Shown here piece by piece: positions 3,497 through 7,259 of a DNA stretch of 13,059 bases (its first letter is position 1; every line of letters starts with the position of its first letter). The translations under genes and the position numbers were made by a program. This stretch comes from Cyanobacteria bacterium P01_D01_bin.156 (GTDB lineage: Bacteria > Cyanobacteriota > Cyanobacteriia > Phormidesmidales > Phormidesmidaceae). The notes under the pieces are model-generated. The model was given only the letters and a program-made list of their open reading frames with translations. It did not search any database and was not told the origin of the DNA. The stretch spans positions 1 to 13,059 of the forward strand of contig JBCCQQ010000103.1 in NCBI GenBank assembly GCA_039024555.1, in the 5' to 3' direction.

Positions 3497-3934
3497 ATGA
3501 ATGCAAGCACTCAAGCTGTATCAATTGGTATTATGGCAAAAATTGCCAGTATTCCGGTGTTATTCCGGGCGGAGTTTTCGTCAGCAATTGTAGACTTTAG
3601 TCCCTGGACCATGGATGAACAGACGCAGAAACATTGTGATCCTAACTCGATGGATTTTGCTTTTTCGTTTTCCAAGTTGCATCCCCAATTAAACTGTGGC
3701 TGCGTTTTATTGCAGGTTTGTTTTGTAAACCAGCTTTCAGATAAAAACAATCGCTTCCACGGTATTAAAGCCTCTGGCCATGGTCATCGGGCTCAGTATT
3801 GGAATTTCTCTACCATAACTGACTGGCGATTTGCCGGAGACTCGTTACCATCTGATGTGTGTCAGCAACAGCTCAAACATATCTTTCATCAAATCCATAT
3901 GCTGTTTGGTTATCCTGCTTCACTAACCCATTAA
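3497..3934 (+). CDS. Conserved cyanobacterial hypothetical protein (145 aa)
   Basis: MNAS.QA...KIAS...LF..EF.....D..PW..D..T....DP.S.D..F...W..ST...W...G pattern resembles a cyanobacterial hypothetical family as I recall it; function unknown. Confidence 0.75.
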   Translation: MNASTQAVSIGIMAKIASIPVLFRAEFSSAIVDFSPWTMDEQTQKHCDPNSMDFAFSFSKLHPQLNCGCVLLQVCFVNQLSDKNNRFHGIKASGHGHRAQYWNFSTITDWRFAGDSLPSDVCQQQLKHIFHQIHMLFGYPASLTH

Positions 3935-4063: not shown

Positions 4064-4089
4064 GTCCTCTTCGACTACGCTCAGAGGAC
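4064..4089. repeat. REP-like hairpin GTCCTCT-TCGACTACGCTC-AGAGGAC
   Basis: Perfect 7-bp stem around a TCGACTACGCTC core that resembles a dispersed bacterial short repeat; lies between convergent genes. Confidence 0.55.
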
Positions 4090-4118: not shown

Positions 4119-4262
4119 CTAAAATCGCCAAGATTTATAATGCGCTTCAAATTCTCCGTAGATTAGCATAGCCCAGGAAAATGTGACTGTAATAGGTGAT
4201 AGTACCAACAGCAACCGTAAGTTTATTAAATCAAATGAACCCAAATTAAAGAGATTATGCAT
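4119..4262 (-). CDS. Small PsbY-like membrane protein (47 aa), not in the ORF track
   Basis: Manual translation: MHNLFNLGSFDLINLRLLLVLSPITVTFSWAMLIYGEFEAHYKSWRF*. It shows the PsbY spacing R-x6-P-x6-W-x5-G; AGGA 11 nt upstream; starts 35 nt after the psbF-fusion stop. Confidence 0.65.
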   Translation of the reverse strand: MHNLFNLGSFDLINLRLLLVLSPITVTFSWAMLIYGEFEAHYKSWRF

Positions 4263-4297
4263 AGTGCTATGCGTCCTAAAGTTTCTGCTAAATATGT

Positions 4298-4591
4298 TTA
4301 ATCCCTCAAGAATCCCTGAATCTCATTTAGAGTTGGCTTACCAAAGTTAATTACATTCCAAATAAGAGAAATCACTAGTGGCAGTAGCACTAGTGATAGT
4401 CGTGAGTCAATTCCAAAAACTTCAAGCTGGATAGGTAATTGAGGTTCACGTCTAATAAATTGCATAGCACCAATGGCTCCCAAAAACCAAACAGTAGGTA
4501 CGCCTAAGGCATGAATTGATAACCATCGAATAGTGTAAATGGGATATTCTATTGGCTGATTGGGGTCTCTGTTGGGAATATTAGCTGTCAT
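4298..4591 (-). CDS. psbF: Cytochrome b559 beta subunit (aa 1-48) fused to a C-terminal PsbY-like domain (aa 61-97)
   Basis: [33 protein letters not shown] is PsbF with the heme His; [35 protein letters not shown] is PsbY-like; AGGAG RBS at 4607-4603. Confidence 0.9.
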
Positions 4592-4615: not shown

Positions 4616-4897
4616 TTATTGATTTAGCGATGGTGCTGTAAAAGGAACTCGGTCTTGGAAGTATTCATTAAGTTGTTGTTTTGCCTGAACACGATTTTCC
4701 ACAATCGGAGCATTGATTTGCCCTGCTCCATAATATTCATCAGGTCGAGGTGTACCAAATGCGTCGTAGGCCAGTCCCGTACTCACAAATAGCCATCCTG
4801 ATATAAACACAGCTGGAAAGTTAATCAGATGTAGCACCCAAAACTGTGGATCGGTAATAATGTCCGATAAAGGACGTTCTCCAGTAGTACCTGCCAT
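4616..4897 (-). CDS. psbE: Cytochrome b559 alpha subunit, divergent paralogue (93 aa)
   Basis: MAGTTGERP...W..H...[23 protein letters not shown]; heme His23 retained; AGGAG RBS at 4910-4906. Confidence 0.95.
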
Positions 4898-5077
4898 ACC
4901 ATCGGCTCCTATTAAAGAGTAGTTATTGATGCTTGATGGCTAAACTCAGAAATAAAATTCTGGCGTTGCTGAGCTTTGAGAGAACATAAGCCGCGAAAAA
5001 AACAGCAACAACTGCGGTAGCCAAACGCATCTCTTGAATTAGTAACGGTATTTTCTCAGTAACATTAGCTTGATTTA

Positions 5078-5096
5078 AATGATATTTATTGTCAAT
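5078..5096. promoter_or_regulatory. Fur-box-like palindrome AATGATATT-T-ATTGTCAAT upstream of psbE
   Basis: 9-1-9 inverted repeat, 6/9 symmetric; contains a minus-strand TTGACA (5095-5090) that could be the -35 element of the psbE operon. Confidence 0.6.
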
Positions 5097-5469
5097 AAGA
5101 TCTCACGTAAAAAAATGTTAACTCTCCAAGATTTGAATATCTTTTGTATGGCTTATCTAGCGATGCTTCTGCTGGAGAGTGTTGCTGATATTACAATGGC
5201 AATACTCATACATGTAACCCGCATGACAATCGTTAAGACTCTGTTTTCTTATCAATATCTATTCTCATTAGTGTGCTACTATAAAGCCCATGCTTTCAAC
5301 GTGACTTGCTCAGTTGGCCTAGGGATGTGGACTGCTTCAGGTTTTCTTGCTATGTGAAGTTTTCGATTTGCAGATGACTTTAACTGTGGCAGGTTTTGGC
5401 ATGCTAAGAGATTCCGTCTCTCTTATGGCGATTGGAATAAGACATGAAACTCTTTCTCCAGGTATTCCT

Positions 5470-6102
5470 ATGAGACTTTTAATACGGATTAGTCTAATCT
5501 TGCTAATGGGCTTTTTATGTCTGTATACAGCCCCTATGGCGCAGGCATCCACAGCAAAAGCGTTTGAAGGATCTATTCATAAGCCACAGCAGAAGAGTTC
5601 TCTCGAAGAAACTCTTGAGCAAGACTGTATCTCTATGACTGGGGCACAGGGGCTAAAAAAATGTAAGGATTTGATTGTACAAGACCAAAACAATTCAGAA
5701 GCCTGGAATCAGCTTGGTCGTATTTTTTATGATTTAGAGAATTATCAGGAAGCCTATTTATCATTCATGCTTGCCACGCAATTTCGGACAGATTATGCGA
5801 TTGCTTGGGCCAATATCTGTGCTGCGCTCAGTCAGCTGCAGTATTATAAAGATGCTTTAGATGCCTGTGATAAATCTCTAAGTGTTAACTTTTCATCAAA
5901 AGGGCCTGTTGATGAAAAGGTTTTGGCCTTGAATAATAAGACAGTAGCTCTTTATTTTTTAGGTCGTTATCAAGAGGCTCTTAAAATTTCTGATCAAGCA
6001 GTTGCGCTTAAGCCAGATGATGCTCAGGCCAACGTAAATCGTACTGTTGCACTCCATGCATTAGCTCATAAAATAGCTCCTCAAAGCGATGATTTCACAT
6101 GA
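5470..6102 (+). CDS. Exported tetratricopeptide-repeat (TPR) protein, about 210 aa
   Basis: TPR patterns (AWNQLGRIFYDLENYQEAY, AWANICAALSQLQYYKDAL, ALNNKTVALYFLGRYQEAL...KPDD); signal peptide MRLLIRISLILLMGFLCLYTAPMAQA from ATG 5470. The start is uncertain because the ORF is open from 5347. Confidence 0.8.
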   Translation: MRLLIRISLILLMGFLCLYTAPMAQASTAKAFEGSIHKPQQKSSLEETLEQDCISMTGAQGLKKCKDLIVQDQNNSEAWNQLGRIFYDLENYQEAYLSFMLATQFRTDYAIAWANICAALSQLQYYKDALDACDKSLSVNFSSKGPVDEKVLALNNKTVALYFLGRYQEALKISDQAVALKPDDAQANVNRTVALHALAHKIAPQSDDFT

Positions 6103-6123
6103 TGAGATTTCACATGATGAGAT
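6091..6123 (+). repeat. 15-bp perfect tandem duplication (GATTTCACATGATGA x2 + GAT)
   Basis: Copies at 6091-6105 and 6106-6120, spanning the TPR gene stop codon. Confidence 0.9.
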
Positions 6124-6218
6124 AGATGTATTGCTTGTGAAAGCATCTTACTACCCCAATATTCTCTACGTCATGATTGTTTGAAAGAATTATTTGTTAA
6201 GTCTACCTGTAGGTATAA

Positions 6219-6836
6219 GTGATGATTATTTTCGCTTTAAAGCGGTTAGCGTTTTTCGCCATGGCCATTTGCCTTAGTTTTCTTCTATGGTATGAACCTG
6301 CATTTGCAATTACCTACTCATTTCAATCACCTGGAACACCGGGGCAAGAGGGTGTTTTGATGGGTTCTGTTACGTATGATTTGGAGATTGCCCGTAAAGC
6401 GTTGGAAAATATGACCTCCAATAGAGGGACATCCGGAGTACTTAACCTCGAAGAACTAGGAGAGGGTAGTGAGTTTTCCTTCGAGTATGTTTCTCCTCAT
6501 TCAGGAGTAAGGCATTCGGAACAAACTATTTGCGATCGCAATATTTATGATCTCAACAATGGTCTGGAAGGTAATGATGTCATTGGTGGAAAAGAAGGTC
6601 CATTCTTCGATTTTAATGGTTATTCTGATTTAGTGTCAGTTGACTTTAAATCCTGTGTGGGTAACAAAAATGAGTTTGGCGTTTCTTCCATCTCAGAGCG
6701 AGACCCTCAAGTTGCCTATAGTGAACTTGAATCTCAGTTCAATCAACTTTTGTTAGTTGAATCTGATTATAGCGGCATTAAACCAGGACGATTTAAGAAA
6801 AAGCTACCTATCAAATTTAACCTAGAAGAGCCATAG
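6219..6836 (+). CDS. Exported hypothetical protein (about 205 aa)
   Basis: Signal peptide ...KRLAFFAMAICLSFLLWYEPAFA|ITYSF, acidic mature part with two Cys; GTG 6219 or ATG 6222 with AGGT upstream. Confidence 0.7.
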   Translation: MMIIFALKRLAFFAMAICLSFLLWYEPAFAITYSFQSPGTPGQEGVLMGSVTYDLEIARKALENMTSNRGTSGVLNLEELGEGSEFSFEYVSPHSGVRHSEQTICDRNIYDLNNGLEGNDVIGGKEGPFFDFNGYSDLVSVDFKSCVGNKNEFGVSSISERDPQVAYSELESQFNQLLLVESDYSGIKPGRFKKKLPIKFNLEEP

Positions 6837-6959
6837 TTCTCCGTTTGAGTCCTTTTGACAGTCGTGCTCCTGGCTCTCCTAGCCTGTTGCAGTAGTTTAA
6901 CCGTGCTGGGCGCAGCGCGGCTTTTTCTATCGAGAGCCCGTGGGACAGTATGTTGGATA

Positions 6960-7259
6960 CTAAAACAATTCATCCTCCACTGAGGTCTGAATTTTACAAT
7001 CTGACGTGGGATAGGCCACGCAGATCAGAGCATAGCCTTTAGATAACTGGTCATCATCCAGAAACGACTGATCAGATTGATCAACAGTCCCCGATAGAAC
7101 CTTTGCTACACAAACACAGCAAGCACCTGCTCGACAAGAGTACGGCAGGTCCATTCCCGCTTCATTAGCCGCATCTAATATATATTTATCCTTTGGCACT
7201 TCAATGGTCTGCTCAATATTGGAGGGTGGCTCTACCAGCGTGACTTGAAAGGTTCTCAT
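6960..7259 (-). CDS. petF: Plant-type [2Fe-2S] ferredoxin (PetF-like paralogue)
   Basis: [49 protein letters not shown], acidic C-terminus EDELF. Confidence 0.92.

Follow-up and report, generated by a model that had tools for sequence, protein, structure and literature searches.

A predicted short PsbY-like protein encoded next to a psbF2::psbY fusion in a spare cytochrome b559 operon of a cyanobacterium

The open reading frame at positions 4262..4119 (minus strand, ATG start, 47 amino acids, with the stop codon included in the coordinates of the ORF listing; hereafter ORF47) of the 13,059-nucleotide stretch analyzed here (the window; contig JBCCQQ010000103.1 of Cyanobacteria bacterium P01_D01_bin.156) is, as judged from the sequence, a real protein-coding gene. 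The predicted product is a 47-residue single-helix membrane protein, and its helix is homologous, at the profile level, to the N-terminal half of PsbY. ORF47 belongs to a distinct family of short PsbY-like proteins that is half-recognized by annotation pipelines and for which no description was found in the literature.

The gene order on the minus strand is psbE2, which encodes a paralogous cytochrome b559 alpha subunit (4616..4897, 93 aa; match to TIGR01332 with E 7e-34), then a psbF2::psbY fusion (4298..4591, 97 aa), then ORF47. The cytochrome b559 beta part of the fusion protein spans aa 10-48 (PF00283 matches aa 10-38), and a PsbY-type helix spans aa 61-95, where PF06298 scores 27.6 bits, above its cut-off of 24. 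The same genome possesses a complete canonical psbE-F-L-J operon on contig C30, so that the operon in the window is an extra one. The stop codon of the fusion (4300..4298) and the ATG of ORF47 at 4262 leave a spacer of 35 nt (4263..4297, minus strand). The sequence, the coordinates and the spacing of ORF47 are exactly those given in the initial annotation, which had claimed a minus-strand ORF of 47 aa located 35 nt past the fusion. The spacer contains an AGGA motif (4277..4274), 11 nt before the ATG and common to all 4 aligned genomes of the genus, that qualifies as a loose ribosome-binding site, and a promoter scan detects no promoter-like site within these 35 nt. The short spacer and the lack of a promoter-like site in it suggest that ORF47 is co-transcribed with the fusion. 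A promoter-like site, a consensus match only, is found upstream of psbE2 (5079..5106, minus strand), inside a block that is conserved in the 4 aligned genomes. On the other side of ORF47, a terminator scan identified no terminator; a 7-bp G+C-rich hairpin noticed by eye about 30 nt past the stop codon (4064..4089, minus strand), a possible terminator, is kept in one congener (G012), lost in another (G015) and no more stable than shuffled sequences (z -0.09).

ORF47 contains one hydrophobic stretch, approximately aa 17-35, inside a conserved core of aa 13-39; this stretch is predicted to form a helix and suggests insertion into the membrane. In an alignment of 22 canonical PsbY sequences, D4, R6, V10, P13, W20 and N24 are invariant. 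Residues R16, V20, P23 and W30 of ORF47 align with R6, V10, P13 and W20, respectively, N14 falls in the same register, and I34 takes the position of the Asn, four residues past the Trp. The PsbY-like residue spacing and the missing Asn, both pointed out in the initial annotation, are therefore borne out; the N-terminal extension, put there at about 12 aa, is present as well and measures about 10 residues relative to canonical PsbY in the genus of the window. Neither N24 nor A29 or Q32 of canonical PsbY has a counterpart in ORF47, the C-terminus of which is short and unrelated. In profile searches, PsbY is the only Pfam or NCBIfam family that matches ORF47 at E<=10: PF06298 yields E 0.0041 (17.4 bits, curated cut-off 24) and NF009711 yields E 0.00082 (18.8 bits, curated cut-off 48), so the proposed similarity is recovered by both profiles below their cut-offs. 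A six-frame PsbY scan of the whole 6.6-Mb genome gives only 5 places at E<=10, namely the intact canonical psbY on contig C101 (52.2 bits), the fusion (29 bits), ORF47 (16.7 bits), a place on contig C84 (12.8 bits) and a weak one on contig C19. The third-best PsbY place of the genome thus lies 35 nt from the second-best one, an arrangement that is not expected by chance.

The similarity becomes much clearer at the level of the family. A profile built from six relatives identifies 35 places at E<1e-6 in 29 of the 173 genomes of the order, and 9 of the 401 genomes in a sample of the class have a match at E<=1e-5, all of them confined to the taxonomic family of the window and one other. A search of a large protein collection at E<=0.001 yields 54 members, 51 of which are 33-47 aa long, the exceptions being proteins of 63, 79 and 82 aa. 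In an alignment of 29 members, L18, S22, P23 and W30 are invariant; the consensus core, with Leu, Ser-Pro, Thr and Trp in register, corresponds to residues 13-33 of ORF47, which fits this pattern. ORF47 scores 101.7 bits against the six-relative profile and 80.3 bits against the 29-member profile, but it is among the sequences from which both were built, so that these scores are not independent and the independent support comes from the 28 other members. The family includes two subtypes. In the first one, the Arg is kept and there is mostly a short acidic stretch and a Trp near the C-terminal end; members of the second one are shorter (about 35 aa) and carry Asp, Asn or Lys at the Arg position. 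Some relatives of ORF47 pass the Pfam threshold (precomputed PF06298 match), and NCBI assigns the name "photosystem II protein Y" to members from Oscillatoria sp. CS-180, a Phormidesmis, a Pelatocladus and a Moorena record; other members are "hypothetical protein" in public records. A search of the ESM Atlas returned only unnamed clusters with a best score of 0.77 and provided no lead, and no paper was found on a free PsbY paralog or on the psbE2/psbF2::psbY/ORF47 operon.

Nearly all members of the family (28 of the 29) match PF06298 at E<=1, the best one with E 1.1e-7. An hhalign comparison of the family with the 22 canonical PsbY sequences gives a probability of 95.6% and E 1.3e-8 over 21 columns, and these columns correspond to the N-terminal 21 residues of PsbY. 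A search of all PDB sequences with the family profile identifies 6 entries at E<=10, each of them a PsbY chain or the PsbY part of a PsbF-PsbY chain. Like canonical PsbY (PF06298/NF009711; ycf32), the family has one transmembrane helix with Arg, Val, Pro and Trp in the same register; unlike canonical PsbY, it lacks the invariant Asn and the C-terminal tail with the conserved Ala and Gln, and ends instead in a short, different C-terminus with a Trp near the end in most members. Furthermore, ORF47 is present in addition to the canonical gene rather than in its place. The initial annotation had proposed two PsbY-type helices in the operon, and this is what is found, one fused to PsbF2 and the other free-standing, with the homology of the free one evident at the profile level.

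The relationship between the two neighboring helices was assessed over the same 21 columns. Mean identity is 42% between the family and canonical PsbY, 36% between the family and the fused PsbY domains, and 39% between the fused domains and canonical PsbY; ORF47 itself shares 8 of the 21 residues with the PsbY helix of the fusion and likewise 8 of 21 with canonical PsbY. In a tree of these columns, canonical PsbY forms one clan (support 99/85), the fused domains form another (98/97), and the short family is a separate group that falls on the side of the fusion relative to the canonical split, 21 columns being too few to define the branching order. An origin of ORF47 as a recent tandem copy of the fused helix was considered and rejected because ORF47 is equally distant from both, its family is no closer to the fused domains than to canonical PsbY, and the tree separates the three groups. 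The short family is therefore best described as an old, distinct PsbY-type paralog and not a recent copy of its neighbor.

The association of the family with the fusion extends beyond the genus. The fusion is present in 16 of the 173 genomes of the order, and in 13 of these 16 a family member is encoded downstream on the same contig and strand, at distances from 35 nt to 2.6 kb. The exceptions are a contig that ends just past the fusion (G031), an 87%-complete genome in which the match is cut at its N-terminal end on its contig (G067), and a fusion truncated by an insertion (G019). In the second cyanobacterial family, the small gene lies 48-66 nt downstream in all 3 fusion-bearing genomes, in the same compact three-gene operon, which brings the count for both families to 16 of 19 fusion genomes. 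The fusion and the small gene are separated by 1 to 3 other genes in most of the fusion-bearing genomes; at large distances these encode heme oxygenase (G033 and G032), a conserved protein of about 200 aa and a TPR protein. In the locus of the Leptolyngbya sp. Heron Island J record (L021/L051), inserted DNA cuts the fusion after about 74 codons, and the frames beyond the break contain no continuation of the PsbY part. An Arg-bearing member is also found in 7 genomes that yield no fusion at E<=1e-25 (G146, G159, G152, G066, G170, G169 and G063), and the Arg-less subtype is encoded in an operon that consists of a TPR gene, the small gene, a gene for an uncharacterized 146-aa protein and a plant-type ferredoxin gene, with no cytochrome genes. 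These fusion-less genomes and the cytochrome-less operon indicate that the small protein is independent of the fusion.

What cytochrome b559 and PsbY do in photosystem II is still a matter of debate. With regard to ORF47, we consider it somewhat probable that the protein is an accessory helix of the spare cytochrome b559/photosystem II module. Under this hypothesis, psbE2, psbF2::psbY and ORF47 would be transcribed together, ORF47 being the third gene in the spare operon, and within a photosystem II-type complex or an assembly intermediate the helix of ORF47 would pack against the alternative cytochrome b559. The predicted association with PsbE2 and PsbF2-Y is suggested by synteny and by the position of PsbY at the edge of solved photosystem II structures, beside PsbE and PsbF, as described in a review (PMC4823308). 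The divergent C-terminus of ORF47, with neither the Asn nor the amphipathic tail, suggests something other than simple occupancy of the canonical PsbY site in the usual manner. A more tentative extension of this reading, to which we give a clearly lower probability, is an alternative b559 module with two extra PsbY-type helices, the free one located at a non-canonical site where it might either tune or shield the heme of the spare cytochrome or provide a docking point on it for an exported assembly factor of the TPR type; such a module could be employed under a particular condition, e.g., low oxygen, far-red light or heme turnover.

The TPR gene suggests another role. Possibly, although this too falls well short of being the probable case, the small protein is chiefly a membrane partner or anchor of an exported TPR protein, such that the TPR protein and the helix form the conserved unit, which might act on the lumenal or periplasmic side in, e.g., assembly or the handling of cofactors. 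Such a protein need not reside in photosystem II, and its position next to psbF2::psbY in the genus of the window would be a by-product of a change in gene order. The direct neighbor found most often is a TPR gene, which adjoins the small gene in 14 of 26 loci (gaps from -35 to +30 nt). The TPR protein encoded in the window cluster and its counterpart in the fusion-less (type B) operon are homologs with 34% identity (E 1e-19), both the TPR protein and the ~200-aa protein start with hydrophobic leaders, and family members occur in genomes without the fusion. For these reasons, the family is not strictly tied to the spare cytochrome, and the partnership with the TPR protein is a serious rival. 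However, the window, the three congeners and the second cyanobacterial family all have the small gene immediately behind the fusion, where a TPR gene neither separates the two nor comes next, and 12 of the 26 loci contain no adjacent TPR gene. Moreover, the helix is PsbY-derived, and PsbY is a photosystem II subunit. In the window itself, the TPR gene (5347..6102, plus strand, hydrophobic leader recognized by eye) and the gene for the ~200-aa protein (6219..6836, plus strand, hydrophobic leader, no known family) are divergent from psbE2 and located upstream of it.

These two genes are parts of a recurring neighborhood (5347-7259 in the window; loci L017, L020, L059, L064, L072 and L074). The TPR protein looks exported and shows a weak, sub-threshold likeness to the TPR of the NrfG/CcmH heme lyase. 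The ~200-aa protein, which in other genomes is encoded alongside the TPR gene and the fusion, has two invariant Cys residues and no family assignment; its predicted fold (mean pLDDT 60) was too poor for a fold search. The neighborhood also includes a gene for a plant-type [2Fe-2S] ferredoxin paralog (6960..7259, minus strand), and the type B operon, the second one with a family member, likewise includes a ferredoxin gene. In two genomes, a heme oxygenase gene lies directly after the fusion. Taken together, the predicted products offer hints of a heme- or redox-related module.

A far less probable role for ORF47 is that of a stand-in for PsbL and/or PsbJ, which are absent from the spare operon. 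The initial annotation had placed the gene where psbL would normally be, and as a description of position this holds, given that ORF47 is the next gene after psbF2, where canonical psbL lies; position is also the one observation that favors a substitution. No PsbL or PsbJ Pfam match to ORF47 is detected at E<=10, the homology is to PsbY, the psbL and psbJ genes of the complete canonical operon on contig C30 are intact, and other genes intervene between the fusion and the small gene in most fusion-bearing genomes.

The coding status of ORF47 was analyzed in an alignment of the window genome (G000) with three congeners (G014, G012 and G015), using dN/dS estimates by the Nei-Gojobori method. The three congeners possess the same operon with the ORF in frame, and their proteins are 100% (i.e., identical; G014), 83% (G012) and 69% (G015) identical to ORF47 at the amino acid level; the start codon, frame and stop codon are intact in all 4 genomes. 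The dN/dS values are 0.18, 0.23 and 0.09 for the whole of ORF47 and drop to 0.06, 0.04 and 0 in the core (aa 13-39), where 8-10 synonymous differences are accompanied by 0-2 non-synonymous ones; the N- and C-terminal flanks are looser, with dN/dS of 0.16-0.68 outside the core. For the neighboring psbE2 and fusion, dN/dS is 0.04-0.07. Past the ORF47 stop codon, the DNA is poorly alignable, and G015 lacks part of it. This substitution pattern, together with the poor conservation past the stop, is characteristic of a translated gene rather than a pseudogene or a conserved RNA element.

The alternative raised in the initial annotation, namely that ORF47 is a decaying, no longer functional duplicate of a psbY-type gene, can hardly be upheld against these values. 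The sub-threshold PsbY scores, the loss of the Asn and the tail, the faster evolution of the flanks, and the start-less condition of a second family copy in the same genome (contig C84) are all compatible with decay. However, the frame is kept among the congeners under purifying dN/dS values (0.09-0.23 overall, 0-0.06 in the core), the gene is present in two cyanobacterial families, and the same divergent C-terminal pattern is maintained across the 29 aligned members and the 54 database proteins. Least probable of all is the reading in which ORF47 is open by chance and overlies a conserved non-coding element, e.g., a 3' UTR or terminator region. The shortness of ORF47 and its loose ribosome-binding site could be cited for it, but it is contradicted by the concentration of substitutions at synonymous sites and by protein-level conservation between genomes whose DNA no longer aligns.

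The C84 copy (C84:13931-14038, minus strand; locus L120/L004) scores 58.9 bits against the 29-member profile. It has AGG where its orthologs have the ATG start, with no in-frame ATG, GTG or TTG, and in the window genome the TPR gene located before this copy in congeners seems to be truncated. It looks as if this copy is decaying while ORF47 is kept, and the loss of its start codon indicates that decay does occur in the short PsbY-like family.

Several known systems resemble the operon in part. Chain F of the PDB entries 7YMI and 7YMM (the PSII-Pcb complex of Acaryochloris marina) has a deposited sequence of 99 aa and is named "Photosystem II protein Y". The fusion from the window aligns with 7ymi_F over aa 8-95 (E 6.8e-28), and the PsbY part of this chain is the second-best PDB match of the family profile. 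According to the supplementary table for 7YMI, PsbF is traced only at residues 17-46, and in the accessible portions of the paper PsbY is reported as not seen and the fusion is unmentioned in the text; as far as these portions go, no structure shows either the fused or the free helix. Far-red light is reported in a review to raise psbE2 expression in Acaryochloris (PMC5438491), and the "PsbF2" of Synechococcus 7335 (PMC8689208) is a different duplication. The "cytochrome b559 subunit beta, long form" of marine picocyanobacteria (NF002717/NF002720) is matched by the fusion from the window through the PsbF part only, far below the cut-offs of these models, and ORF47 is unrelated to them beyond its PsbY likeness.

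In plants, as outlined in the review mentioned above (PMC4823308), two copies of the nuclear-encoded PsbY (PsbY-1 and PsbY-2) are produced from one precursor that is then cleaved. The likeness of the operon to this two-copy polyprotein, noted in the initial annotation, turns out to be superficial: in both cases there is more than one PsbY-type helix per locus, but the window contains a separate gene and a PsbF fusion instead of a PsbY-PsbY tandem, and the free copy has a different C-terminus. The review also holds that cyanobacteria have one psbY gene only and that the plant polyprotein arose later. The genome analyzed here contradicts the first of these statements, given that it encodes four PsbY-type helices, namely the canonical one, the one fused to PsbF2, the free ORF47 and the start-less second family copy. 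Some cyanobacteria thus have, by the sequence evidence, several PsbY-type genes and not one, with conservation of the free form in two cyanobacterial families. In this operon, which is natural and under selection, a spare cytochrome b559 is combined with two PsbY-type helices, and its genes are defined targets for knock-out, tagging and purification. The small gene is shorter than common ORF cut-offs, and the labels "hypothetical" or "photosystem II protein Y" hide a distinct paralog.

A tblastn search with the fusion found no match in a plasmid collection, and a sequencing-run search identified 5 DNA datasets, all marine metagenomes, and 0 RNA datasets as carriers. Upstream of psbE2, a 35-aa ORF (4923..5030) was considered as a gene and rejected because its alignment contains indels of lengths not divisible by three. 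The divergent TPR and psbE2 genes flank a block of about 40 nt (5060-5101) that is near-identical in the four congeners. TTGACA and an inverted TTGA...TCAA pair occur in this block, which may be a regulatory site shared by the two genes. A 145-aa ORF that is convergent with ORF47 (3497-3934, plus strand) belongs to no Pfam family, but its DNA is highly conserved among four congeners, so that it is probably a real gene.
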